Shown one piece after another: positions 20-35,329 of a DNA stretch of 37,948 nt. The position numbers were made by a program, and so were the translations under genes. This DNA is from a virus (Duplodnaviria > Heunggongvirae > Uroviricota > Caudoviricetes), in the IMG/VR virus record IMGVR_UViG_2939162341_000002, one strand, 5' to 3'. The notes beneath the pieces are model-generated. The model was given only the letters and a program-made list of their open reading frames with translations. It searched no databases and was not told the DNA's origin. The number at the start of each line of letters is the position of its first letter. The first letter of the stretch is position 1.

Positions 20-1315
20 TTAATTTTTCATTGCTTCGTTATGGGGCATGGTTGGGGCAAACTCGCTTAACTGTGTATTTAACAAAGCTACCTGTGCATT
101 ATTGTTTTCAGACATCCATTTTCCGTATACCTGAAATACCATTTGCGCATCTGCATGGCCCATCTGGTTTGCTATAAATGCCGGGTTAGCACCAGCTGTC
201 AGCGACCAGCAGGCATAAGTATGTCTCGACTGATATGATTTTCGATGGCGGAGTCCGGCACGTTTTATCGCTGCGTCCCACATCTGCCTTATTGAGTCAA
301 CGGTAAAATGGTCACCATAATTTTTTACTCTCGCTGACACTTCAGGTTGAAAAACAAAGGTGCATTTTTGTTTTTCTGTTCTGCCATACTCTCTGAGGTG
401 AACATCAATGATATGCTCTTTGCTCAGTCTCGTTAATGTCATCTGACTCCGGAGAGCGTCGATTGCTGGCTTAATAAGATGAATGACCCGATTGGTTCCC
501 GCCTGTGTTTTTGGTACCGTGAAACGGTCTTTTGCTAAATTTCTCCTGATCATCATTGTTCCATTTTTCAGATCTATGTCCTCCCATCCAAGTGCACACA
601 GCTCACCAGGGCGAACGCCAGTATAAACAGAAACACACCATAAATTTTTTGCTTGCTGATTTCTGCATGCATCGATAAGACGGATAAATTCCTCCCGCGA
701 AAGAGGATCCGGAATGGTTCTTGATTCCTTTAATGGCGAGATCCCCTTAAACGGATTATCTGCCAGGTAACCGTTATCAACACCAAACTGGAACACGGCG
801 TTAAGATTTGTCATGTAATTATTTACAGTTACAGCCGATCTCCCTGGTTGTGTAACAATATAGTTACTTTTGGGGATCTGGTATCCAGTCAGTAGCTCTT
901 TACGAACCTCCAGTAATTTTTCTTTATTAATCGATGAGGCAAGATTTTTTTCACCGATTATGCTCAGGATATTTTTGATGACGGCACGGTATGTGTTGAG
1001 TGATGTTTTGGAGACTTCAGTTTCTTTCAGTGCCAGAAATTTTTCAGCCAGTTCTTTTATGGTTAAATCTTGTCGGGCCTCACCAAATTTTTCCAGATTG
1101 CGTGAGGAGGGAAACTGTTTTGCATAGTCGAAAACACCAGTTTTTATTGCGTAACAAACAGAGGAGCGTAGTTCACCTGCAACGCGCCTGTTTTTTGCTG
1201 TGTCAGGAACCCCCAGATTTTCCCTGACTCTTACGCCTTTATAAACAAACCAGATACGTAATTTCCCTCCATGGTTTTCCACGCCTGTCGGATATTTCAT
1301 TTCAACTTCTCTCAT
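20..1315 (-). CDS. int: Phage integrase, tyrosine recombinase (lambda Int family)
   Basis: 431-aa ORF; C-terminal catalytic region with R...H..R..Y pattern (RHTYACWSLTAGANPAFIANQMGHADAQMVFQVYGKW); sits at prophage edge reading outward, next to an excisionase-like gene. Native start may be the internal MKYPTG. Confidence 0.9.
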   Translation of the reverse strand: MREVEMKYPTGVENHGGKLRIWFVYKGVRVRENLGVPDTAKNRRVAGELRSSVCYAIKTGVFDYAKQFPSSRNLEKFGEARQDLTIKELAEKFLALKETEVSKTSLNTYRAVIKNILSIIGEKNLASSINKEKLLEVRKELLTGYQIPKSNYIVTQPGRSAVTVNNYMTNLNAVFQFGVDNGYLADNPFKGISPLKESRTIPDPLSREEFIRLIDACRNQQAKNLWCVSVYTGVRPGELCALGWEDIDLKNGTMMIRRNLAKDRFTVPKTQAGTNRVIHLIKPAIDALRSQMTLTRLSKEHIIDVHLREYGRTEKQKCTFVFQPEVSARVKNYGDHFTVDSIRQMWDAAIKRAGLRHRKSYQSRHTYACWSLTAGANPAFIANQMGHADAQMVFQVYGKWMSENNNAQVALLNTQLSEFAPTMPHNEAMKN

Positions 1316-1334: not shown

Positions 1335-1586
1335 TCAAGTAAGATGACGTCTTGGTCTCGCTGATGCCTGGCGCTCAATCCAGCGATCAATTTCTTCCAG
1401 GTTGTAAAAGCATGGACTGTTATCCCATGGCATACCGTCATGAGCGACATGCTTATATTCCCTTCCTTCCATAAACGATTTTTCCCGGGCCTTTTTTAAC
1501 GTACCTTTTTTTATTCCTTTCAGCGCAATTAACTGCTCTTCGGATACCCATTTGCCGGGAGAGACAATCATGATTACTTCGCTCAT
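1335..1586 (-). CDS. xis: Excisionase-like DNA-binding protein (Xis)
   Basis: 83-aa ORF immediately upstream of int on the same strand; shares the GREY segment with lambda Xis as I recall it; small basic protein in the canonical int-xis arrangement. Confidence 0.7.
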   Translation of the reverse strand: MSEVIMIVSPGKWVSEEQLIALKGIKKGTLKKAREKSFMEGREYKHVAHDGMPWDNSPCFYNLEEIDRWIERQASARPRRHLT

Positions 1587-1658
1587 CGATTTCTTTATCT
1601 CTTACATCAGACGAGCGCCGGTTGCAGAATACCAGTCACAACCGGCGACAGTTGAACA

Positions 1659-3587
1659 TTAAGAATCAGCCTGACTCGGGATCAGTTTTTGCCAGATAAC
1701 TGAAACGTATTTTGCCTGGTAACGGGCGTCATCAAGTGCATTATGGCGCTCACCTTCGAATGGAATAGCCGTTCTGGCATCGAAGTCTATGGCTTTCCCC
1801 AGCTCAACGATTGTGCGTACATCGCGATCGTTGTAGTAACGCCACGGGCAGGGGATCCCCTGCCGTTCGTATGAACGGCGCAAAATCGTGTTGTCGAAGT
1901 TGGCTCCATTTCCCCAAACCTGAACAAAAAATTCACCGGAGTTTTCGTCGATAAATTCCCGCAATTGTAACAGTGCATCATCTAACGGGATTTCATCGGT
2001 CATAATGGCAGATTGCGATTCGCGTGATTGCTTAAGCCACCATTTAATGGTGTCCCGATCAATGACTCCGCCAGCAGTTTCCAGATCGATAGTCTTACTA
2101 AATTCCGGTCCCATATCTCCGGTTTGCGGATCGAAAAATATTGCACCTATTGAGATGATCGGGGCATCAGGATTTTTTCCCATGGTTTCAAGGTCGATCA
2201 TTAGATGGTCACACGTCCTGCTGGTGGATGTGATTTCGTGATGACCGTTCACCTTAATTGGGTGATCTGCCGTCTCGCCAGTTTCATTATCGCTATTGTG
2301 ATGCTGATTGCCGCCAGTGTTCTCCTTGTGTGGATGTTCAGCGCCTTCCATTTCCTCCGGATCATCTTCCTGAACTTCAACCTGATACTCTTCATCGAAT
2401 GTTTCTTGGTATGTTGCGTCGCCCATCACCGCGCCACAATCAGGGCAGTTGCCGCCGCCGGTCTGACCGCAGGCGGTGCAGGCTTTTTCCACTTCCTGGT
2501 GCGCCACTGGTTCAGGCTGTTTCGTTTCTGGCTCGTTTTGTAACGCATTTGGACTGTTTTGTTCCGCTTTTTGGTAGTTCCGTTCCGATTCATGCTGGTT
2601 CTGGTTCACAGAATCGCGGGTCTGGATCCCCTTAACCCATTTCGGATCATTCGGGTCACTAATCCCTTCAACAAATTCACCACGTGATGCAGCAAGCAAC
2701 TTATCGGCGTCAGGCTGGCTGATATTGGCTGCCTGCATAATTTTGTTTACTTCGTCAGCGGTAACTTTTATCGGCTCTGGTTGTTCTGAATCTTCAGCGG
2801 TATCTACATTTTGCGGTAAGCCCGTGTATGTGCCATTTTTTCGGGCAAAATATTCTTCTTTTGTGATTTCAGTGGCGCCAGCAGCCAGTGCCTTATCCAG
2901 ACCAGAAAGTTTGTTTGCGCGACCGTATTTTTCTCCGTCCTTATCTGCGAAGAGGAAATAGAACGGCCCCTCACGCTCTACAGATGGTTCAGCTTCCGGC
3001 GCGGTTTCATTTTTTGGGATATCAGATACCTCAGTTTCCACTGCATCAGTTTGTGTTTCTGATGACTGGAGAACATCAACAGTGCCCAGGTCTGTTTCTT
3101 CATTCTCAAACACGCCCTTTGTCGTCAGGTATTCGCAGATATATTTGTTCAGTGCTACGGGATCTTTGTGAATGTCGATCGGACGCTCACGGACAAGGCC
3201 AAAAATAGTTTGGCGGTCGTAGCGAAGGGCATCAGGCTGTTTGCGCATTGATGCCGAGATACGCTTCCAGTCTTCGCGGTCGTTGTCGATAACTTCTTTT
3301 TTTGCCCAGCGATGGATGCTGCCGTCAATGTTTCCGGCATCCACATCACCAGGCCAGAGAGCGTAGGCCAGTTCGTCATCCAGTGTTTTCCATGTCTGCT
3401 TGTATTCGCGATGAATGGCAGCAATGACCGGGCTGATTTTTCCTGTTGAATTTTCAGTGTACTGTTGATTGGCTCTGGCGCGGGCGAGATCAACAACAGA
3501 CGTGTATTTTCCGGTTTCCTTGCGTTCACCTTCGCGACGTTTTTTCCAGATGCGCATCTCTGCCTGAATTTCGGGTGATGCTGCCAA
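1659..3587 (-). CDS. Prophage exonuclease with C-terminal DnaQ-like 3'-5' exonuclease (DEDDh) domain; 5' end runs into IS1, so likely truncated or promoter-less
   Basis: C-terminal region has DEDDh-type motifs (MIDLETMG, NGANFDNTILRR, HNALDDARYQAKY); central CxxC...CxxC zinc-ribbon (CTACGQTGGGNCPDCGAV). The ORF-finder start (TTG) lies inside the IS1 terminal repeat, so the native 5' end is lost or displaced. Confidence 0.75.
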   Translation of the reverse strand: MAASPEIQAEMRIWKKRREGERKETGKYTSVVDLARARANQQYTENSTGKISPVIAAIHREYKQTWKTLDDELAYALWPGDVDAGNIDGSIHRWAKKEVIDNDREDWKRISASMRKQPDALRYDRQTIFGLVRERPIDIHKDPVALNKYICEYLTTKGVFENEETDLGTVDVLQSSETQTDAVETEVSDIPKNETAPEAEPSVEREGPFYFLFADKDGEKYGRANKLSGLDKALAAGATEITKEEYFARKNGTYTGLPQNVDTAEDSEQPEPIKVTADEVNKIMQAANISQPDADKLLAASRGEFVEGISDPNDPKWVKGIQTRDSVNQNQHESERNYQKAEQNSPNALQNEPETKQPEPVAHQEVEKACTACGQTGGGNCPDCGAVMGDATYQETFDEEYQVEVQEDDPEEMEGAEHPHKENTGGNQHHNSDNETGETADHPIKVNGHHEITSTSRTCDHLMIDLETMGKNPDAPIISIGAIFFDPQTGDMGPEFSKTIDLETAGGVIDRDTIKWWLKQSRESQSAIMTDEIPLDDALLQLREFIDENSGEFFVQVWGNGANFDNTILRRSYERQGIPCPWRYYNDRDVRTIVELGKAIDFDARTAIPFEGERHNALDDARYQAKYVSVIWQKLIPSQADS

Positions 3588-3628: not shown

Positions 3629-3904
3629 GTGGCTTCTGTTTCTATCAGCTGTCCCTCCTGTTCAGCTACTGACGGGGTGGTGCGTAACGGCAAAAGCACC
3701 GCCGGACATCAGCGCTATCTCTGCTCTCACTGCCGTAAAACATGGCAACTGCAGTTCACTTACACCGCTTCTCAACCCGGTACGCACCAGAAAATCATTG
3801 ATATGGCCATGAATGGCGTTGGATGCCGGGCAACTGCCCGCATTATGGGCGTTGGCCTCAACACGATTTTACGTCACTTAAAAAACTCAGGCCGCAGTCG
3901 GTAA
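3629..3904 (+). CDS. insA: IS1 InsA
   Basis: 91-aa ORF with Cys-rich N-terminus ([28 protein letters not shown]), recognised as IS1 InsA from memory. Confidence 0.93.
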
Positions 3905-4326
3905 CCTCGCGCATACAACCGGGCAGCGATGTGATTGTCTGCGCTGAAATGGACGAACAGTGGGGCTACGTAGGTGCTAAATCACGTCAGCGCTGGCTGT
4001 TTTACGCGTATGACAGGATACGGAGGACGGTTGTGGCGCACGTCTTCGGTGAACGCACTCTGGCCACACTGGAGCGTCTTATGAGCCTGCTGTCGGCCTT
4101 TGACGTGGTGATATGGATGACGGATGGCTGGCCGCTGTATGAATCCCGCCTGAAGGGAAAGCTGCACGTAATCAGCAAGCGTTACACTCAGCGCATTGAG
4201 CGACATAATCTGAATCTGAGACAACATCTGGCAAGGCTGGGACGGAAGTCACTGTCGTTCTCAAAATCGGTGGAGCTGCATGACAAAGTCATCGGGCATT
4301 ATCTGAACATAAAACACTATCAGTAA
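3823..4326 (+). CDS. insB: IS1 InsB (transposase, made as InsAB' by -1 frameshift)
   Basis: 167-aa ORF overlapping the insA 3' end in the -1 frame, characteristic of IS1. Confidence 0.93.
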
Positions 4327-4444: not shown

Positions 4445-4969
4445 TTATTGTTTAACCCATAATAGTTCATTGACATTGAATCCCAACTTTTGAGCGGTAC
4501 GCACATAGTCTGCTTTTACATTATCTGGAATAGTTTGGGTCCTTGCCAGAATCCATAGGTATTCTCTGTTCGGACCACTGACAAGAGCATACTTATACTC
4601 ATCATCCAGCTTGATTACATTATAGCCACCATAGAAGGGGCCAAAAAACGAAACTTTCAACGCTGCAGTTTTAGTATCTCCAGTAAAGTATGCTTTACCT
4701 TCGCTCTCGCTCCATTTGTTTTTCGTTGGATCGTATCCACGGTTAAGTACGCGAATCCCTCCGTCGTTCCGTTTTTCATAAGTAGCGCTGACCTGTTCCA
4801 GACCACGTTCGAACCAGTTCTCGAGGCGAGCTATTTCATACCATTTTCCGAGGTAGCGGTTGGCGTCAAAATTTGTAATCGGCTGCACACCTTTAGGTGG
4901 TGTCGGGGCCTTACATGCTATAAGAGTGAAAGAGAGTGCAATGCCAGTCAACACAGGCCATAACTTCAT
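4445..4969 (-). CDS. Outer-membrane lipoprotein of the bacterial lipocalin family (Blc-like paralog)
   Basis: 174 aa; lipoprotein signal peptide with lipobox (LIAC); lipocalin motifs shared with E. coli Blc as recalled (FDANRYLGKWYEIAR, GKAYFTG, ALKVSFFGPFYGGYNVI). Confidence 0.85.
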   Translation of the reverse strand: MKLWPVLTGIALSFTLIACKAPTPPKGVQPITNFDANRYLGKWYEIARLENWFERGLEQVSATYEKRNDGGIRVLNRGYDPTKNKWSESEGKAYFTGDTKTAALKVSFFGPFYGGYNVIKLDDEYKYALVSGPNREYLWILARTQTIPDNVKADYVRTAQKLGFNVNELLWVKQ

Positions 4970-5161
4970 AATAAATCCTGTACTTTTGATAGTTGAGAGT
5001 AAGTATGAAAGATAGATGAGTACGACCGATCACTTAAAGAACTTTCCTACTATATTAGGAATAGTCAATAACAGAAAAATTGTCAGTGATGAAGCCAGAA
5101 AGGCAATTTAGTCCGTGCACTACAAAGTTTATGTGTTAATGAATTAGTCAAGGGGGAGGAA

Positions 5162-6121
5162 ATGATAAAAAAACCTGTGATTGGGATCAGCGGTTGTTTG
5201 GGCGGTTCTGCTGTTCGTTTTGATGGTGGTCACAAAAGAGATGACTTTTTAATGGACAAATTAGTGGAATGGGTAACATTCAGACCAGTATGTCCGGAAA
5301 TGGCTATAGGGCTGCCAGTTCCGCGTCCTGCTCTACGACTTGTGCGCTCGAAGCAAGGAAATATACGGATGTGTTTCAGCCACGACCAGAATGAGGATGT
5401 GACAGAGAGAATGACAGAGTTTAGTCGTTCTTATATGGACAAATTAAAGGATGTATCGGGGTTTGTGGTTTGTGCTAAATCTCCCAGCTGTGGCATGGAG
5501 CGCGTGCGTGTCTATGGTGAAAATGGTAATCGAGGTCGTAAAGATGGAGTGGGACTATTTACGAGCACTTTGATGGAAAAGTTTTCCTGGCTACCGGTTG
5601 AAGAGGATGGGCGATTACATGATCCAGTGCTTCGTGAGAATTTTATTGAAAGAGTTTTTGCTTTGCATGAGCTCAATCACCTTTACAAGGAGAAATTATC
5701 AAGAAGAGAGTTATTAGCTTTTCATAGTCGTTATAAGCTTCAGTTGTTGGCGCATAGCCAGGCAGGCTATAAAGATATGGGACCATTTGTGGCTGCAATA
5801 CACGAGTGGGCGGACCTTGAATCATACTTTGAGGTGTATCGTGATAATCTGATGGCGATTCTCAGAAAACCAGCATCACGTAAAAATCACACGAATGTGC
5901 TGATGCATATACAGGGGTATTTTAGTAATTACTTAAGTACACGCCAGCGTAAAGAGTTGAGCGAGGTTATACTTAACTATCGCTTTGGCACATTGCCTCT
6001 TCTTGCGCCGTTGACTCTGCTGAAGCATTATCTGGGTGAGTATCCTAATGATTACTTGCTTACACAGAATTACTTCGATCCCTATCCGGAAGAACTGGCT
6101 CTAAGACTGATGGTGAATTAA
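5162..6121 (+). CDS. DUF523 (TudS-like thiouracil desulfidase fold) fused to DUF1722 (YbgA-like) protein
   Basis: N-terminal Cys motifs typical of DUF523 (GISGCLGG, VCPEMAIGLPVPRP, KSPSCG); C-terminal half resembles YbgA (NHTNVLMHIQGYF, LPLLAPLTLLKHYL); strong RBS AGGGGGAGGA 2 nt upstream of the ATG. Confidence 0.7.
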   Translation: MIKKPVIGISGCLGGSAVRFDGGHKRDDFLMDKLVEWVTFRPVCPEMAIGLPVPRPALRLVRSKQGNIRMCFSHDQNEDVTERMTEFSRSYMDKLKDVSGFVVCAKSPSCGMERVRVYGENGNRGRKDGVGLFTSTLMEKFSWLPVEEDGRLHDPVLRENFIERVFALHELNHLYKEKLSRRELLAFHSRYKLQLLAHSQAGYKDMGPFVAAIHEWADLESYFEVYRDNLMAILRKPASRKNHTNVLMHIQGYFSNYLSTRQRKELSEVILNYRFGTLPLLAPLTLLKHYLGEYPNDYLLTQNYFDPYPEELALRLMVN

Positions 6122-6527
6122 CTGTATGCGATATCATCTGAAAGTGATGAGTTCCTGTATGCAGGATATTTACAATCGTAAAAACTACGCTATGATGCTC
6201 ATAGTGTCAGTTTTTATAAAAATCCTGTTCACGCTAAAGAAAACATTGAGATGCAATTTAATGTTGGTAAACATACCAGCCCCAAACGATTTTATTCAAT
6301 CTGTTTTTATATGAAGATATTTCAAGTGAATATTAAGAGCATATAATATTATTATTGCACGCAGCTATTATAATATAACAGATTAGTTTAATGATTTGTT
6401 TTTTGTGAGTTAAACACATGGTTTTATAGTTGTGATGCAATGAGATTTTCCTTATTGTTGAACTGGCGAATATTGATTTTCCACCTATACTTACCTGGTG
6501 TAACCCCAATGATATCAGGTGGATAAT

Positions 6528-7241
6528 ATGCCATACATATGTTCTATCATTTTGGTGTTGAACTCGTTTGGTGTCCGAATTGGTAAAGAAGATATTTTGT
6601 TTAAAAAAGGAAATGCTGTCCTCATTGAATACAATTTAAAAGATCTTTTTTCGTCAAATACAGATCATCTAATGATCGTAGATGTTGAGGAGAAAACAGT
6701 TAATGATTTCTTTAAAAACTACACACTCTCACCTTTTTCTGTAAGAAGGTTTTATCCGTCATACTTGATAGTAGAATGTGAAGATTTTTCATTGTTAAAG
6801 AACTTGGTTGCATGCTTGAATTGTGATAGCAAAACCGTGGATGTAGTTAGAAATCAAATATCACTTGCATGTCTTGCTGTCTTATCTTCAGAGAAAATAG
6901 TGCAAAGTTTTTTGTTCGGAAGTCTTAATAACTTAGGTTGTAAAGTTAAGGCTATTATTCACTCGGATATCTCAGCGTCATGGAGACTTTGTGATATATC
7001 TTCAAGATTATATATGAGCGAGAGTTTGTTAAAAAGAAAATTAAAAGACGAAGGATTATCGTTTAGTAAATTAATTCTTGAAGAACGAATGATGATGGCG
7101 CAAAGATTATTGATCTACAGTAACCATACTGTCGGCAAGGTGGCGGGAATATGCGGGTATGACAATGCATCATATTTTGTAAGTGTTTTTAGAAGATATT
7201 TTGGTGTGCCTCCGCACCAATATTTATCAAGATTTTCTTAG
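6528..7241 (+). CDS. AraC/XylS-family transcriptional regulator (AppY/PatE-like), AT-rich
   Basis: C-terminal AraC-type HTH region (MAQRLLIYSNHTVGKVAGICGYDNASYFVSVFRRYFGVPPHQY); N-terminus resembles AppY-type prophage regulators; visibly AT-rich. ORF-finder start is GTG at 6519; ATG at 6528 has RBS AGGTGG. Confidence 0.8.
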   Translation: MPYICSIILVLNSFGVRIGKEDILFKKGNAVLIEYNLKDLFSSNTDHLMIVDVEEKTVNDFFKNYTLSPFSVRRFYPSYLIVECEDFSLLKNLVACLNCDSKTVDVVRNQISLACLAVLSSEKIVQSFLFGSLNNLGCKVKAIIHSDISASWRLCDISSRLYMSESLLKRKLKDEGLSFSKLILEERMMMAQRLLIYSNHTVGKVAGICGYDNASYFVSVFRRYFGVPPHQYLSRFS

Positions 7242-7431: not shown

Positions 7432-7647
7432 ATGAAATCCATGGATAAGTTAACAACGGGCATCGCCTACAGCACCTCTGCAGGCAGTGCTGGCTACTGG
7501 TTTTTACAGTTGCTCGATAAAGTCACACCCTCACAGTGGGCGGCAATAGGTGTATTGGGTAGTCTGGTATTTGGCATGCTGACGTATCTGACAAACCTTT
7601 ATTTCAAGATTAAAGAAGACAGGCGTAAGGCTGCGAGAGGAGAGTAA
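7432..7647 (+). CDS. Class II holin (phage 21 / Stx-phage S type) with dual-start motif
   Basis: 71 aa from ATG at 7432 with RBS GGAGGTGAGG upstream; begins MKSMDK (Met1-Lys-Ser-Met4); two hydrophobic segments and a charged C-terminus ([13 protein letters not shown]). The ORF extends upstream to 7348 but that part lacks an RBS. Confidence 0.85.
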
Positions 7648-7651
7648 GACA

Positions 7652-7870
7652 ATGACTAAAAACTATGAACTGATTGTGAAAGGGACCCGCAATTTTGAGA
7701 ATAAAGTTACGGTAATCTTAACGTTACAGGACAAAGAACGTTTTGCCGGTGAAATTTTTGATCTGAACATCAACCTTGAGCGACTTGAAGGAGCTGGTTT
7801 GGATTATTATGAAGTTACTGCGGTAAAACATGCCAAACAGTTCTTGAGAGATTTGGCTGAAAAAATATAA
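7652..7870 (+). CDS. Hypothetical protein (72 aa) translationally coupled to holin
   Basis: ATG 4 nt after the holin stop; RBS AGAGGAGAG lies inside the holin 3' end; AT-rich; no recognisable domain. Confidence 0.5.
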   Translation: MTKNYELIVKGTRNFENKVTVILTLQDKERFAGEIFDLNINLERLEGAGLDYYEVTAVKHAKQFLRDLAEKI

Positions 7871-7888
7871 AGCGGCATTACTGCCGCT
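7871..7888. terminator. Bidirectional hairpin between convergent genes
   Basis: AGCGGCA-TTAC-TGCCGCT perfect 7-bp stem, A-rich on the left and T-containing on the right, between the stops of the convergent 72-aa and 98-aa genes. Confidence 0.55.
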
Positions 7889-7894
7889 TAGAAA

Positions 7895-8191
7895 TTATTC
7901 AATGTCTGGTAGCTTATCAAAGATTTCGGATACTCTTATATTTGTCATATAAGCAAATTGAGATTCTGCCAGCTCTTTGGGTGATTTTCCCGCTTTTTCT
8001 GAGCCAAAAATTGTTTCTAAAGCCAGCATGTTATATTTGAGAACCTCTTCTCGAGTTTTACCTGATAATTTTGCGGTAACAGCAATATAAAAAGGCAACA
8101 CTTTATCCAGAAGGTCGTTGTGTTTTGTCAGTTGTGGTAATACCACATCAAGTTGCTTACTGATTGGTTTGAATGGATCTATACCGTTCAT
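7895..8191 (-). CDS. Hypothetical protein (98 aa), transcribed opposite to the late operon
   Basis: Clean ATG start with upstream AAGGGA; 128-bp divergent intergenic region shared with the endolysin gene; no recognisable domain; predicted soluble. Confidence 0.5.
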   Translation of the reverse strand: MNGIDPFKPISKQLDVVLPQLTKHNDLLDKVLPFYIAVTAKLSGKTREEVLKYNMLALETIFGSEKAGKSPKELAESQFAYMTNIRVSEIFDKLPDIE

Positions 8192-8318
8192 AGTTACATT
8201 CCCTTATCAGAGGTAATCAGCCATCCCCCCTTTATTACACACGCCAGTATCCACCACTGACGGGCTGAGTGCTTAACATATCTAGAGATTAGAAACTGAT
8301 AAATCCTGATAAATATCC

Positions 8319-9346
<1,028 letters not shown>

Positions 9347-9709
9347 ATTAATATTAAATCGGATTATTTTTAGCGCTGAATGTGAAATTTAAATAAAAAG
9401 GACTCTTCCATGAGTCAAAATCCTTGAAATCTTAAGGGTAAGATAAAAGGTCATTAGACAGAATGACACGTTTTATTAATAAATAAAGCTATTGTTTCAT
9501 TCGTGTGTTTTTCTTTACAAAAGTAATCCTTGCTATGGTTGGTTAATCATGCGTTAATGGTGTTCTGGTTTGTTACAAAATTATCTGAAGCAGTCATTGT
9601 TATAATTTTATTATTTGTACCTCTTGAGATTTCCTTGTTGGTTTTTCTCTCTGATATTTTTTTTCGGACCATTCTGCCCAAGGGCTAACTTCTTCAAAAG
9701 GTAATAATG

Positions 9710-9922
9710 ATGTCTAACAAAATGACTGGTTTAGTGAAATGGTTTAACCCTGAAAAAGGTTTTGGTTTCATCACGCCGAAAGATGGTAGCAAAGATGTGT
9801 TTGTCCATTTCTCAGCTATTCAGAGCAACGATTTCAAAACGTTAACTGAGAATCAGGAAGTCGAATTTGGTATTGAGAACGGACCTAAAGGCCCCGCGGC
9901 TGTTCATGTTGTGGCACTTTGA
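9710..9922 (+). CDS. cspI: Cold-shock protein, CspA family (CspI-like)
   Basis: 70 aa; [38 protein letters not shown] matches CspA-family RNP motifs; roughly 360 bp upstream non-coding leader as in cold-shock genes. Confidence 0.9.
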
Positions 9923-10121
9923 GGTAGAAAATATTACAAACCATATTCACTTTAGATGCCCGTGTTGCCATGGTTCTCAGTATAGAACATCATCTTTTGA
10001 TGTTTCTGACAGGAATCCTTTCGGGGCAAAATGTATCTTTTGTAAATCAATGATGATTACATTTGATAATATTTCACAATACTTAAATGTTAGCCGTCTG
10101 TCGTTAGATTTAAGAAAGTGA
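9906..10121 (+). CDS. ynfN: Small Cys-rich protein (YnfN-like, Qin-type)
   Basis: Contains [19 protein letters not shown]...CIFCKS; the first in-frame ATG (9906) overlaps the cspI 3' end, so the true start is uncertain. Confidence 0.5.
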
Positions 10122-10127
10122 AAATGA

Positions 10128-10150
10128 AGGCTCCTTCGGGAGCTTTTTTG
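10128..10150 (+). terminator. Rho-independent terminator after the ynfN-like gene
   Basis: AGGCTCC-TTCG-GGAGCTT stem followed by TTTTTT. Confidence 0.6.
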
Positions 10151-10193
10151 CTTAGTGTCTAGTCGATGGATACTCACATATTACGGTAACATT

Positions 10194-10424
10194 ATGAAAA
10201 AAATAATAGTTTTTTTTAACTCTGAACCAGCAATGGTAGTGCCAGTGATGACCGGAGTTAACACCATCATGCGTGAATATCCAAATGGCGAAACAACACA
10301 CCTCACTGTAATGGCTGCAGGGTTTCCATCTCTGACCGGAGATCATAAAGTCATTTATGTAGCAGCGGATCGGCATGTAACTTCAGAAGAAATTCTGGAA
10401 GCAGCAATGAGACTCTTGAATTGA
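10194..10424 (+). CDS. Hypothetical small protein (76 aa from first ATG)
   Basis: ORF with ATG at 10194 (ORF-finder start is GTG at 10155); weak RBS; possibly related to Qin ynfO/ydfO-type genes but not confidently recognised. Confidence 0.4.
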   Translation: MKKIIVFFNSEPAMVVPVMTGVNTIMREYPNGETTHLTVMAAGFPSLTGDHKVIYVAADRHVTSEEILEAAMRLLN

Positions 10425-10596
10425 TTTGATTCTAATGCATTGATAATAAATGATAATCATCTTTATCTGTTTGTGTGAAATTTAGACCGTCGTATGTTGA
10501 TTATTGCGATGTTTCATCTTATCTTTTATACGCTTGCTCCATATAATTGACACTACTGTGTACCAGGAAAGTCATAACAGACTAAAAGAGGAAATG

Positions 10597-10770
10597 ATGA
10601 ACATTGAAGAGTTAAAAACAAAAACAGAAGCAGATATTTCTGAATATATAACAAAAAAAATCATTGAGCTTAAGAAAAAGACCGGGAAAGAAGTTACCAG
10701 TATCCAGTTTACTGCACGGGAAAAAATGACTGGTCTTGAAAGCTATGATATCAAGATTGATTTAATCTAG
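10597..10770 (+). CDS. gnsB: GnsA/GnsB family protein
   Basis: 57 aa (MNIEELKTKTEADISEYITKKIIELKKKTGKEVTSIQFTAREKMTGLESYDIKIDLI) matches GnsA/GnsB as recalled; RBS AAAGAGGAAA upstream; an extra ATG lies at 10594. Confidence 0.85.
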   Translation: MNIEELKTKTEADISEYITKKIIELKKKTGKEVTSIQFTAREKMTGLESYDIKIDLI

Positions 10771-11172
10771 TCTGTTTATAGCATTAGCATCAATTTCTCA
10801 TCAGATGCTATTCAACAATACAAATTACCCATAAACCTCGTTTTTACGGGGTTTTGTTATATTTAAACATTACCGAATAGGTATAAATCTCGATTGTCGA
10901 TGGTATTGGTTGTGTGACAATACCTAGTCTTTTCGGTATGCCTGAAGAGAATACAAACGACAGATTATGTAAGGGAAACGCGCTGAATCTTTCACTCTTT
11001 CATGCTGAGTGATTTGACGTTATATTTTTAGCCGTAAGTGAAGAGCAAACGCATGGAGCGACAAAATGCATAAAGATCAATACACTGATGCCCCCTCCCA
11101 GGAGCAGGTTCGTGTAAAAACTATGCTTAATAGCACCATTTCTGATCCTACCCACGTAATATGGACACAGGC

Positions 11173-12039
11173 CTAAGCGAGGTTCTTGTTTTCAAATTGT
11201 TCCGGACTGAGGCCGCCACACCAACTGTGCCGCCGCCACCGATTGTAATCACATTCGATATAATTAAACACCGTTGCCCGCATTATTTCCCGGCTGATAA
11301 AGTGTTCTCCATGGATACATTCCACTTTCAGCGAATGAAAGAAGCTTTCCACGCAGGCATTATCGTAGCAGCAACCTTTTGCGCTCATACTTCCACGCAG
11401 ATTATGCCGCTTCAGTTGCGCCTGATAATCTGCTGAACAGTACTGGCCTCCACGGTCCGTGTGAACGATAACGTTCCGGGGCCTCTTACGCCGCCACAGC
11501 GCCATCTGCAGGGCATCGCAGGCCAGTTGCGCCGTCATGCGTGGCGACATTGACCAGCCAATAACGGCACGTGACCACAGGTCAATGACCACTGCCAGAT
11601 ACAGCCAGCCTTCATCTGTACGTAAGTACGTGATGTCTCCTGCCCACTTCTGGTTCGGGCCACTGGCGTAAAAATCCTGCTCCAACAGATTTTCTGACAC
11701 AGGCAGGCCGTGTGCGCGGTAGCTGACCGGGCTGAACTTCCGGGAGGCCTTTGCCCTCAGTCCCTGACGGCGCAGGCTTGCCGCCACGGTTTTTACGTTA
11801 AAGGGGTAACCCTGAGCACGCAGTTCATCCGTCAGGCGTGGGGAACCGTAACGCTGTTTTGACCGGGTAAAAGCCGCGAGGACAACGCTGTCGCAGTGTT
11901 GGCGGAACTGCTGACGCGTGCTTATCCTTGTCCGCCGCTGACACCACGTATACCAGCCGCTGCGGGCCACCCGGAGCACGCGGCACATTGCTTTGATGCT
12001 GAACTCAGCCTGATGTTTTTCAATAAAGACATACTTCAT
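11173..12039 (-). CDS. insF: IS3 transposase OrfB (InsF, DDE integrase domain)
   Basis: 288-aa ORF recognised as IS3 InsF; overlaps orfA in the -1 frame as in IS3-family frameshift fusions. Confidence 0.93.
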
Positions 12040-12344
12040 TTCAGGCGCTTCGCGAAGTATGTCGCGGCCTTTTGGAGGATAGCCAGCTCTTCATCCCGTT
12101 CTGCCAGCTGGCGTTTGAGACGTGCAATCTCGGTAGACATCTCCAGTTCACGTTCAGAAGACGTCTGCTGATTTTGCTGTTTACTGCGCCAGTTGTAGAG
12201 TTGTGATTCATACAGGCTGAGTTCACGGGCTGCGGCAGTAACACCGATGCGTTCAGCAAGCTTCAGGGCTTCACTGCGAAATTCAGGCGAATGCTGTTTA
12301 CGGGGTTTTTTACTGGTTGATACTGTTTTTGTCATGTGAGTCAC
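12036..12344 (-). CDS. insE: IS3 transposase OrfA (InsE, HTH)
   Basis: ~100-aa ORF recognised as IS3 InsE ([32 protein letters not shown]...). Confidence 0.93.
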
Positions 12345-12401
12345 CTCTGACTGAGAGTTTACTCACTTAGCCGCGTGTCCACTATTGCTGGGTAAGATCA
12401 A

Positions 12402-12584
12402 AAGGCTGTCGTCCAGGTTCTGGAGACAATTCCGGATGTTCTTGAACGCGATTGCGCCCTGACTCCTCAGGCCGTTGGCGTTGTACAGCAGGCCATTGAT
12501 GACCTGCGATACACTCTTCAGGAAAAATCCTACGAGGCTTGTGCTGCTGAATTAATTCCTGATGAGGAAGGAGAGAGTCTCTAG
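12402..12584 (+). pseudogene. 3' remnant of the terminase small subunit gene, truncated by IS3
   Basis: Open frame starts exactly at the IS3 boundary with no start codon and ends in a TAATG stop/start overlap with the large terminase ATG, the usual small/large terminase coupling. Confidence 0.6.
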
Positions 12585-12592
12585 GAGGAATA

Positions 12593-14692
12593 ATGGGTTT
12601 TTCATCAGCCCGAAATTTGGGAAGGGACATATCGGCAGGATTTTCCCCACCACGTCGCATGCCGATTTCGGAGGCTGTTAAAAAATTCATGCGTGTTCCC
12701 AAGGGGGCTGGTAACTCGGTGCCATGGGATCCTGAACTGACACCCTACATCATTGAGCCCATGAACTGCCTGGCATCGCGTGAATACGATGCGGTGATTT
12801 TTGTTGGTCCTGCGCGAACAGGGAAGACCATTGGTCTGATCGATGGATGGATTGTCTATACCATCGTTTGCGATCCTTCGGACATGCTCGTTGTGCAGAT
12901 GACCGAAGATAAGGCCCGCGAGCATTCAAAAAAGCGCCTCGACAGAACGTTCAGAAGCAGTGCGGCGGTAAAGAAAAGAATGAGTCCACGTCGTAATGAC
13001 AATAATGTCCATGATAAGACGTTCAGGGATGGCTCGTTCCTTAAAATTGGTTGGCCCTCGGTCAACATTATGTCGTCGTCGGATTACCGGTTTGTCGCCT
13101 TAACCGATTACGACCGTTTTCCGGAGAATATCGACAGCGAGGGTGATGGTTTCTCCCTGGCCTCAAAACGTACCACCACATTTATGTCCGCCGGGATGAC
13201 TCTGGTGGAGAGCTCGCCGGGACGTGACATCTGCGACAGCAAATGGCGACGTAAGTCGCCTCATGAAGCGCCACCGACGACTGGTATTCTTTCCCTTTAC
13301 AATCGTGGTGACCGCCGCCGCTGGTACTGGCCATGTCCGCACTGCGGTGAATATTTTCAGCCAGCCATGGATGCCATGACCGGCTACCGTAATGAACCGG
13401 ATCCCTTTAAAGCCAGTGAGGCGGCGTATCTACTTTGCCCGCACTGCAGCGGCATTATCACTGCGGAGAAAAAGCGTGAGCTCAATAGTGCAGGAGTCTG
13501 GTTGCGTGAAGGTCAGGTCATTGATTGTAACGGCAACGTTTCCGGTGAACCGCGCCGCTCCCGTATCGCCAGTTTCTGGATGGAAGGGCCAGCTGCTGCG
13601 TATCAGACCTGGGCGCAACTGGTTTACAAATTACTGACTGCAGAACAGGAGTATGAAGCGACAGGAAGTGAAGAAACACTCAGGGCGGTTATCAACACCG
13701 ACTGGGGATTACCTTATCTTCCCCGCGCCAGCATGGAGCAACGAAAAAGTGAACTGCTTGAGCAGCGGGCAGAGCCAGTTCCTTCCCGCAGTGTGCCAGA
13801 TGGCGTTAATTTTCTTGTGGCGACAGTGGATGTGCAGGCGGGACGTCACCGCCGTTTTGTGGTTCAGGTAACGGGCTATGGCAGCCGTGGCGAACGCTGG
13901 ATTATTGATCGTTACAACATCACGCAGTCATTGCGCGGTGACAGCGACGGGGAGAGCCAGCGAATTGATCCGGCCAGCTATCCGGAAGACTGGGATGTCC
14001 TGCTGACGGATGTTTTTCATAAAAGCTGGCCGCTGGCCTCCGATCCTTCTCAACAAATGCGACTGATGGCAATGGCGGTGGACTCCGGCGGTGAAGACGG
14101 GGTCACTGATAATGCCTATAAATTCTGGCGTCGTTGCCGTCGTGATGGCCTTGGTAAACGTATTTACCTGTTTAAGGGCGACAGCATCCGGCGCGCAAAA
14201 CTGATCACCCGTACATTCCCTGATAACACCGGACGAACGGGCCGACGGGCGCAGGCCGCAGGTGATGTGCCGCTCTGGCTTCTTCAGACGGATGCACTGA
14301 AAGACCGGGTGAATAACGCGTTATGGCGTGACTCGCCAGGTCCCGGCTATGTGCATTTCCCTGACTGGCTGGGGAGCTGGTTTTACGACGAACTGACGTA
14401 TGAAGAGCGGAGCAGTGACGGGAAATGGAGTAAGCCGGGTCGCGGTGCCAACGAAGCTTTTGACCTGATGGTGTATGCCGAGGCTCTGGTCATTCTGCAT
14501 GGATACGAAAAGATCCGCTGGCCGGATGCACCGGAGTGGGCGAGCCGGGAAACCTGGCTGGAGTGTGTCCCGGACAGTACCGAACCGTCATCCTCACCGG
14601 AACCGGTATCCACGCCTGTTAAAAAACAAAAACGGAAGAAAACAGTAACTGACGATGTTAACCCCTGGCTGACTTCCGGAGGATGGTTATGA
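12593..14692 (+). CDS. Terminase large subunit (GpA family)
   Basis: 699 aa; Walker A (VGPARTGKT); zinc-finger-like CPHCGEYFQ...CPHCSG resembling lambda gpA as recalled; followed by W-like and portal genes. Confidence 0.9.
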   Translation: MGFSSARNLGRDISAGFSPPRRMPISEAVKKFMRVPKGAGNSVPWDPELTPYIIEPMNCLASREYDAVIFVGPARTGKTIGLIDGWIVYTIVCDPSDMLVVQMTEDKAREHSKKRLDRTFRSSAAVKKRMSPRRNDNNVHDKTFRDGSFLKIGWPSVNIMSSSDYRFVALTDYDRFPENIDSEGDGFSLASKRTTTFMSAGMTLVESSPGRDICDSKWRRKSPHEAPPTTGILSLYNRGDRRRWYWPCPHCGEYFQPAMDAMTGYRNEPDPFKASEAAYLLCPHCSGIITAEKKRELNSAGVWLREGQVIDCNGNVSGEPRRSRIASFWMEGPAAAYQTWAQLVYKLLTAEQEYEATGSEETLRAVINTDWGLPYLPRASMEQRKSELLEQRAEPVPSRSVPDGVNFLVATVDVQAGRHRRFVVQVTGYGSRGERWIIDRYNITQSLRGDSDGESQRIDPASYPEDWDVLLTDVFHKSWPLASDPSQQMRLMAMAVDSGGEDGVTDNAYKFWRRCRRDGLGKRIYLFKGDSIRRAKLITRTFPDNTGRTGRRAQAAGDVPLWLLQTDALKDRVNNALWRDSPGPGYVHFPDWLGSWFYDELTYEERSSDGKWSKPGRGANEAFDLMVYAEALVILHGYEKIRWPDAPEWASRETWLECVPDSTEPSSSPEPVSTPVKKQKRKKTVTDDVNPWLTSGGWL

Positions 14693-25660: not shown

Positions 25661-26409
25661 ATCCCATGACAGAGACAGAATCAGCGATTCTGGCGCACGC
25701 CCGGCGATGTGCGCCAGCGGAGTCGTGCGGCTTCGTGGTGAGAACGCCGGAGGGGGAAAGATATTTTCCCTGCGTGAATATCTCCGGTGAGCCGGAGGAT
25801 TATTTCCGGATGGCTCCGGAGGACTGGCTGCAGGCAGAAATGCAGGGTGAGATTGTGGCGCTGGTCCACAGCCACCCCGGTGGTCTGCCCTGGCTGAGTG
25901 AGGCCGACCGGCGGCTGCAGGTGCAGAGTGATTTGCCGTGGTGACTGGTTTGCCGGGGGGCGATTCACAAGTTCCGCTGTGTGCCACATCTTTCCGGGCG
26001 GCGCTTTGAGCACGGGGTGACGGACTGTTACACGCTGTTCCGGGATGCTTACCATCTGGCGGGGATTGAGATGCCGGATTTTCATCGCGAGGATGACTGG
26101 TGGCGTAACGGTCAGAATCTCTATCTGGATAATCTGGAGGCCACAGGGCTGTATCAGGTGCCGTTGTCAGCGGCGCAGCCGGGCGATGTGCTGATGTGCT
26201 GTTTTGGTTCATCGGTGCCGAATCATGCCGCCATTTACTGTGGTGACAGCGAGCTGCTGCACCATATTCCTGAACAACTGAGCAAACGAGAGAGGTACAC
26301 CGACAAATGGCAGCGACGCACACACTCCCTCTGGCGTCACCGGGCATGGCACGCATCTGCCTTTACGGGGATTTACAACGATTTGGCCGCCGCATCGACC
26401 TTCGAGTGA
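25657..26409 (+). pseudogene. Tail tip assembly protein K (MPN/JAMM plus NlpC/P60 domains) interrupted by an in-frame TGA at 25942..25944
   Basis: The two ORF-finder pieces (25657..25944 and 25981..26409) are in the same frame. The upstream piece carries HSHPGG (JAMM); the downstream piece carries the Cys region (DCYTLF). The stop follows a Trp codon (PW*LVCRG), consistent with TGG to TGA. Confidence 0.8.
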
Positions 26410-34467: not shown

Positions 34468-34640
34468 TATCCTTCAAGCCCTGAAGGAGGCTGTTCCTGG
34501 TACGTTCAGACTGTTGTTGAGCTGGAAATCGCAACGGAGGAAGAAACTTCGTTGCTGGAAGTCTGGAAAAAGTATCGGGTGTTGCTGAACCGTGTTAATA
34601 CATCAGTAGTACCGGATATTGAATGGCCAGCACTGCCGTA
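34468..34640 (+). pseudogene. Remnant of a tail fibre assembly gene (tfa C-terminus), in frame directly after the stf stop
   Basis: Translation ...[39 protein letters not shown] matches the conserved Tfa C-terminus as recalled; no start codon or RBS of its own. Confidence 0.7.
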
Positions 34641-34738
34641 GGGTAAAACATATAAATTCTATAATTAGATGTATCTTTCCATTTACGGCAAGGAAGGGGG
34701 CTTGGAAGACGTAAAGCATCTCACACCGAGATTATTTT

Positions 34739-35329
34739 TTATATGTCAGGTGTCTGAAGTTTTGCTTTGGCTCTTAAAATGGTTTGCCGCGAGGTTTTGA
34801 ATTCCCGGGCAATGGCACTTATACTTACACCTGACTTAATTCGTTCGAATACCACCTGTTTCTGTTCTTCATTTAACACAGGTGGTCGACCAAAACGTTT
34901 CCCTGCGCCGCGGGCTCTTACTATCCCGGAATGAGTGCGTTCAAGTAAAAGGTCTCGTTCAAATTCAGCGACTGCTGAAATTACTTGCATCATCATTTTT
35001 CCTGTTGGACTGGTCAGGTCAATGCCACCCAATGCTAAGCAATGCACTCTGATACCTGTTTCGGTCAGTTGTTCCACTGTTTTCCTGATATCCATTGCAT
35101 TACAACCAAGGCGATCCAGTTTTGTCACAATCAATTGATCACCACATTTCAGGCGAGCAAGCAACCGGTTAAAACCAGGACGCTCACTGGTTGCTGCTGA
35201 GCCGCTAATGTGTTCTTCGATTATTTGCTGAGGTTTGATTTTAAAACCTGCACTTTCGATTTCCCGGCGTTGATTTTCGGTGGTCTGATCCAGCGTTGAT
35301 ATCCGACAGTAAGCAAAAATTCGAGACAT
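34739..35329 (-). CDS. Serine recombinase (resolvase/invertase family)
   Basis: 196 aa; N-terminal catalytic motif (YCRISTLDQ with Ser nucleophile, KLDRLG); C-terminal HTH ([20 protein letters not shown]); occupies the Pin-invertase position next to the tail-fibre genes. Confidence 0.88.

Follow-up and report, generated by a model that had tools for sequence, protein, structure and literature searches.

The window analysed here, a stretch of 37,948 nucleotides taken at its full length, is a lambdoid prophage of E. coli, defective and located at the Qin site (rspB / ydfJ). It is 99.98% identical to E. coli ZH142, where the prophage lies between rspB and a disrupted ydfJ. An IS3 element separates the remains of two phage genes just upstream of the large terminase gene, and the features of this locus are, from left to right:

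11066..11142, plus strand: truncated left ORF, comprising codons 1-26 of a conserved phage ORF of 68 aa (PHROG 657, WP_000548593)
11140..11142: left junction triplet TTC, common to strain WCHEC050613
11173..12335, minus strand: orfAB transposase of IS3 with a programmed frameshift (orfA from its ATG at 12335 to 12036, orfB from 12039 to 11173)
12401..12403: right junction triplet AAA, equivalent to position 541 of phage cdtI and to position 2582 of locus L001 of phage HannyBb
12402..12584, plus strand: remnant of a putative small terminase gene, consisting of the last 60 codons and the TAG stop of a 179-codon DUF1441/PHROG 141 gene; a pseudogene according to PGAP
12593..14692, plus strand: intact gpA-type large terminase of 699 aa, with GpA_ATPase and GpA_nuclease domains

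The segment 11143..12400 is a complete IS3 of 1258 bp, with its transposase on the minus strand. It is bounded by imperfect terminal inverted repeats that start with TGATC (ends TGATCCTACCC and TGATCTTACCC, with matching cores), and orfA (99-102 aa) and orfB (288 aa), both on the minus strand, are intact. When compared with 11 other IS3 copies it was 99.7-100% identical to them, and PGAP, which treats the identical copy as intact, annotates it as 'IS3-like element IS3 family transposase, programmed frameshift'. At window position 11844 (IS3 position 702) the element has a private substitution, an A where eight other IS3 copies have a C, which results in OrfB A66S; the same variant was present in strains T16R, 19-5 and YZ22PE244. 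The flanking DNA reads ...CCATTTC up to the left boundary and AAAGGCTG... from the right boundary onwards. Both the completeness of the element and the mismatch between its flanking triplets (ttc versus aaa) had been claimed in a sequence-only reading of this stretch, and both claims hold. Simple insertion of IS3 normally produces a 3-bp target duplication, as is seen for nearby IS3 copies in strains NCTC9966 (GGT) and AST19 (TTT), and the window element has none (TTC at 11140..11142 versus AAA at 12401..12403). We attribute this lack to a deletion adjacent to the element, and it says nothing against its identity as IS3.

To the right of IS3, the remnant at 12402..12584 encodes 60 residues (KAVVQVLETIPDVLERDCALTPQAVGVVQQAIDDLRYTLQEKSYEACAAELIPDEEGESL), corresponding to residues 120-179 of a 179-residue protein. 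Upstream, a TAA within the end of IS3 (12393..12395) closes its reading frame, which contains no ATG, GTG or TTG and so has no start codon. We considered, and rejected, the idea that the remnant is expressed as a decoy for the large subunit, in view of this closing TAA and the missing ATG, GTG or TTG. The stop codon is the in-frame TAG at 12582..12584, which precedes the start of the large terminase gene (ATG at 12593) by 8 nt; the TAATG overlap has its TAA in the same frame, two codons beyond this actual stop. Thus, of what the sequence-only reading had said about this frame, the absence of a start codon stands, and the termination in TAATG does not. Its assignment of the frame to the 3' end of a small terminase gene, on the other hand, was confirmed by alignment to small-terminase genes: the remnant matches a C-terminus, with 98% identity to residues 119-179 of the phage cdtI small terminase. 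It also matched the DUF1441 profile (E = 1.3e-9; 38.5 bits, with a cut-off of 35.1; positions 103-144 of 147) and PHROG 141 (4.5e-20; positions 119-177 of 183), in both cases within the C-terminal third of the family only. The NCBI (RefSeq) pipeline has already given 12402..12584 the annotation 'DUF1441 family protein, incomplete, missing N-terminus'.

In relatives of the prophage the intact gene measures 540 nt, and its product matches DUF1441 (E = 1.7e-44) and PHROG 141, 'terminase small subunit' (3.8e-65). The intact protein additionally matches PHROG 57 (1.1e-9), the family of lambda Nu1 (1.3e-76), and Nu1 in turn matches PHROG 141 (5.6e-8) over its residues 2-150. A BLASTP comparison of the DUF1441 protein with lambda Nu1 was not significant; the reciprocal profile matches nevertheless suggest that the DUF1441/PHROG 141 and Nu1 families are remote, co-linear homologues. 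Two lines of reasoning, this homology and the position of the gene, make the DUF1441 protein a probable small terminase: in cdtI, Tritos, HannyBb and WCHEC050613 the gene lies between the candidate cos and the gpA-type large terminase gene, and the cdtI and Tritos records annotate it as small terminase. To our knowledge, no DUF1441 protein has ever been tested biochemically in this role. Searches of NCBIfam and PDB sequences with the small terminase gave nothing usable and matched no solved structure, and literature searches on DUF1441 or on this IS3 in Qin gave nothing specific. In Nu1, an N-terminal helix-turn-helix reads cosB and the C-terminal end contacts gpA. By analogy, the part lost from the window would include the N-terminal DNA-binding helix-turn-helix, and the remnant would represent the end that binds the large subunit. 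When the window was searched by tblastn with the cdtI small terminase and lambda Nu1, the remnant was the only hit, meaning that an intact small terminase gene, which would have spoken against the earlier reading, was not found elsewhere in the window.

To the right of the remnant, the intact large terminase gene has kept its ribosome-binding site GGAGG at 12584..12588. To the left of IS3, the truncated ORF starts with the ATG at 11066..11068, and its frame continues into IS3, where it stops at 11176. This ORF had been described before as running into the element from an ATG at 11070, of which the first part is right and the position is not; the opinion that it does not look like a terminase N-terminus was justified, as it matches PHROG 657.

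The extent of the missing DNA could be read from phage HannyBb, an IS3-free relative of the kind with which the earlier reading had proposed a comparison. Relative to this intact phage, IS3 stands in place of exactly 1,036 bp (1546..2581 in locus L001), with sharp breakpoints on both sides. Identity to HannyBb is 98.7% in the left flank of the element; in the right flank, identity to phages cdtI, Tritos and HannyBb amounts to 99.4-99.6%. All three are functional phages that, unlike the window, carry the 1,036 bp and lack IS3. The DNA upstream of cos in cdtI and Tritos is not the same as in the window. The deleted stretch begins with the last 42 codons of the 68-aa ORF (PHROG 657), which are followed by a spacer of ∼370 bp in which three very small ORFs are annotated (two were scanned, and neither had a family match). 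After this spacer comes GGGCGGGAGCGTCGCGG, and then about 184-185 bp of AT-rich, cosB-like spacer that reaches up to the small terminase gene. The stretch ends with the first 356 nt (codons 1-119) of the 540-nt small terminase gene.

Several observations point to a cohesive-end site within the deleted DNA. The sequence GGGCGGGAGCGT is the very first sequence of the cdtI record and of the linear Tritos record. Furthermore, the bases of GGGCGGGAGCGTCGCGG align in register with the left cohesive end of lambda, GGGCGGCGACCTCGCGG, and GGGCGGGAGCGT agrees with the 12-nt cohesive end of lambda at 8 of 12 positions and in the 5 bases that follow; the proposed cos core of the relatives (GGGCGGGAGCGT-CGCGG) and that of lambda (GGGCGGCGACCT-CGCGG) are alike. 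From the starts of the phage records and this similarity, GGGCGGGAGCGT is a likely lambda-like cosN cleavage site. A search for cos-like motifs, which had been suggested earlier, found none in the whole window with up to 3 mismatches allowed, and the previous supposition that the cos region had been deleted was borne out insofar as the candidate cos lies within the missing 1,036 bp. The intact relatives have the same layout as lambda, with a cohesive-end site (in the relatives a putative one), a spacer of ∼185 bp, a small subunit of ∼180 aa and a gpA-type large subunit, but their small subunit belongs to DUF1441/PHROG 141 and not to the family of Nu1. The window differs from lambda in lacking such a site and in having kept only the last third of the small terminase gene.

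We next consider how this arrangement is distributed among other strains, for which the junction searches covered 5,426 complete E. coli genomes. The identical arrangement was found in one piece in four independent complete genomes (39EVA, ZH142, HUE1 and L37), and both junctions were also present, in derivative arrangements, in at least eight further genomes. IS elements are a common cause of misassembly, and an assembly in which repeat copies had collapsed at the IS would produce a false junction of this type. Given that the four genomes were assembled independently, and that the junctions recur in the eight or more others, we regard such an artefact as extremely improbable.

The most informative relative was WCHEC050613. 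This strain contains the same decayed prophage with the same IS1-truncated exonuclease gene, shows 100% identity to the window over 9 kb upstream, and differs from it downstream at 9 positions in 25.5 kb. On the left, its IS3 is joined to the same base as in the window; on the right, the junction lies only 138 bp further on (138 bp lost), which leaves the candidate cos and the small terminase gene intact. The two IS3 copies differ at 2 of 1258 positions, which is slightly above the divergence of the flanks, a difference that small numbers can explain. These data also bear on the idea that recombination between IS3 copies in two prophages created a chimera, in which the lysis and cspI-gnsB region would come from one prophage and the terminase and structural genes from the other. 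Such an exchange is conceivable in view of a median of ∼4 IS3 copies per E. coli genome and the mosaic nature of lambdoid prophages. However, both flanks occur together and in the same order, at 98.7-99.6% identity, in HannyBb and WCHEC050613, from which the window differs by a clean internal deletion, and we therefore consider a chimeric origin very unlikely.

Turning to the course of events and its effect on packaging, we infer that IS3 inserted first and that a rightward deletion, which took away cos and the small terminase gene, came later; this account we hold to be very probable. The order is suggested by WCHEC050613, which shares the left junction but has lost only 138 bp. A common ancestor of the window and WCHEC050613 would have acquired the element at TTC in the 68-aa ORF, ∼500 bp ahead of cos, and the left TTC is probably what remains of the 3-bp target of that insertion. 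Afterwards, the two lineages would have lost DNA rightward of IS3 to different extents. The order could also have been the reverse, with IS3 first landing at AAA in the small terminase gene and a subsequent leftward deletion reaching the 68-aa ORF. Strain YZ22PE244 fits that order, as it has the same IS3 with the same right junction, which is there the stable one, and has lost a further 3.5 kb leftward (window 7621..11142, from the holin gene to the 68-aa ORF). Nor do the searches discriminate here, since an intermediate with a target duplication was absent for either order among the 5,426 genomes. However, the reversed order requires that an independent IS3 event hit exactly the same left base in WCHEC050613, where the small terminase gene is intact, and we find it quite improbable for this reason.

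For the deletion step that would have followed the first insertion, two routes lead to the same outcome, namely a single IS3 with the old left junction, a new right junction and no target duplication. In the route judged most likely, a second IS3 copy in the same orientation would have landed nearby, at AAA inside the small terminase gene, after which homologous recombination between the two copies would have removed one copy and everything in between. Elements of the IS3 family transpose by copy-out and paste-in, with a circle as intermediate, and the deletions that arise beside them are usually attributed to a second insertion close by and subsequent recombination. Alternatively, a single IS3 copy may have produced the deletion in one step, by intramolecular transposition onto a nearby target, with neither a second copy nor recombination. 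The identical outcome is compatible with this route, as is our failure to find two IS3 copies bracketing the 1,036 bp in any of the 5,426 genomes. On the other hand, the general mechanism of copy-out and paste-in points to a second insertion with recombination, and a second local insertion did occur in this lineage. In T16R, two IS3 copies in inverted orientation flank a 10-kb inversion that runs from int to the left junction of IS3; the second copy lies in the integrase gene, and its 3-bp GGG duplication (window 1210..1212) is split across the inversion. For these reasons we favour the two-step route and regard the one-step event as possible but rather doubtful.

To look for the steps themselves, we used synthetic queries for the parental junctions (terS...GAGAAA joined to IS3, and IS3 joined to TTCGATGGG). 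Neither gave a contiguous match in the 5,426 genomes; the few matches that covered a query completely consisted of two separate pieces, derived from IS3 copies at other nearby sites. Likewise, no IS3 with an intact target duplication was found at either window junction in these genomes. With no intermediate in this set, the first insertion site and the deletion mechanism are what we infer rather than observe. A parallel from evolving E. coli B is formed by the rbs deletions mediated by IS150, a member of the IS3 family, in which there is reportedly an old junction at one IS end and a new one at the other, with loss of the duplication. The window differs from these deletions in that the deleted DNA contains the prophage packaging site and in that the intermediate is unsampled.

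The sister strains further indicate that this IS3 copy kept remodelling the prophage after the deletion, as is apparent from the inversion in T16R and the additional loss in YZ22PE244. Both IS3 copies of T16R encode OrfB A66S, which suggests that the variant copy was duplicated after it had gained this change. In strain 19-5, the same 10-kb segment from int to the left junction of IS3 is inverted as in T16R. A comparable history can be seen at a neighbouring site, 253 bp further right than that of the window: here PK8276 has an IS3 with an AAT duplication, and E. coli B REL606 has the same left junction as PK8276 with a rightward deletion to gene J, which is far larger than that of the window.

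These are not the only IS3 insertions in this part of the prophage. In Qin-like prophages, the few kilobases that lead from rzpQ to the large terminase start codon contain at least 11 different IS3 sites (strains E3, UPEC-245U, STLEFF_47, H2, DAX4, AST19, the window lineage, EC21Z-063, PK8276/REL606, ES6 and NCTC9966); roughly half of them combine the lack of a target duplication with an adjacent deletion. The single orientation of the neighbouring IS3 copies is a search bias, as only pieces on the same strand were joined. The number of sites could reflect a hot spot or simply insertions that are tolerated. That the stretch from rzpQ to the large terminase gene is a recurrent IS3 target, whether through a preference for AT-rich DNA near cos or through repeated selection for hosts with disabled prophage packaging and retained accessory genes such as cspI and gnsB, is a tentative idea to which we give a rather low probability. 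If true, the window would be one example of parallel prophage domestication and not a one-off accident.

The damage at the terminase locus has to be viewed together with other defects of the prophage, which involve the following features:

1659..3575: 3'-5' exonuclease gene without its N-terminus
3629..4326: IS1, abutting the truncated exonuclease gene
25666..26409: gene for a gpK-like C40 peptidase (tail assembly), with an internal stop at codon 93 (25942..25944)
34516..35329: truncated tail-fibre assembly gene, adjoining the pinQ invertase at the right prophage end, as in K-12 Qin

The whole early region, with the immunity, replication and antitermination genes, is absent from the prophage, which would therefore not be inducible even with an intact terminase. 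The lesion of IS1 and the exonuclease gene is common to WCHEC050613 and T16R and would thus predate the split of these lineages, whereas the gpK-like gene is intact in WCHEC050613. Between IS1 and the lysis cassette (4445..7241) there are genes of the lipocalin family, the YbgA family and a helix-turn-helix type that do not resemble phage genes, and WCHEC050613 lacks a 770-bp lipocalin stretch beside IS1. An accessory cluster of cspI, ymcF, ynfN and gnsB occupies 9707..10770, between the lysis genes and the packaging region; the cspI-gnsB cluster has been kept in the functional phages HannyBb and 2H10 as well as in degraded prophages. The Qin prophage of K-12 and the Qin-like prophage of REL606 resemble the window in their location at the rspB / ydfJ site and in being defective through IS elements and deletions. 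They also share with the window an accessory cluster of essD, rrrQ, rzpQ, cspI, ynfN and gnsB, and the pinQ, ydfK end. In contrast to them, the window keeps a nearly complete set of head and tail genes with a gpA-type large terminase.

According to the proposed history, the intact large terminase would be left with neither a cos site nor the subunit that recognises it, and would be unable to start or finish packaging of the prophage. This failure would hold with the prophage's own proteins or with those of a helper phage. The sequence-only reading had concluded that the prophage cannot package DNA, which is in line with the loss of cos and of the small terminase gene, but this would be one of several lethal defects.

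The lesion is a case of ordinary IS-mediated decay of a Qin-type cryptic prophage, a well-known process, and the pseudogene has already been flagged in RefSeq. It matters little beyond correct annotation, and the principle is a textbook one. What our analysis supplies is the exact lesion, 1,036 bp that comprise the candidate cos and 119 codons of the small terminase gene, together with an approximate sequence of the decay steps. Before the split from WCHEC050613, the prophage would have lost its early region in connection with IS1 and would have received IS3; the deletion of cos and the small terminase gene would have come later, followed by the IS3 inversions and deletions in sister strains. 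Altogether, this set of related genomes could be used to illustrate, on a small scale, how IS elements drive the stepwise decay of a prophage.
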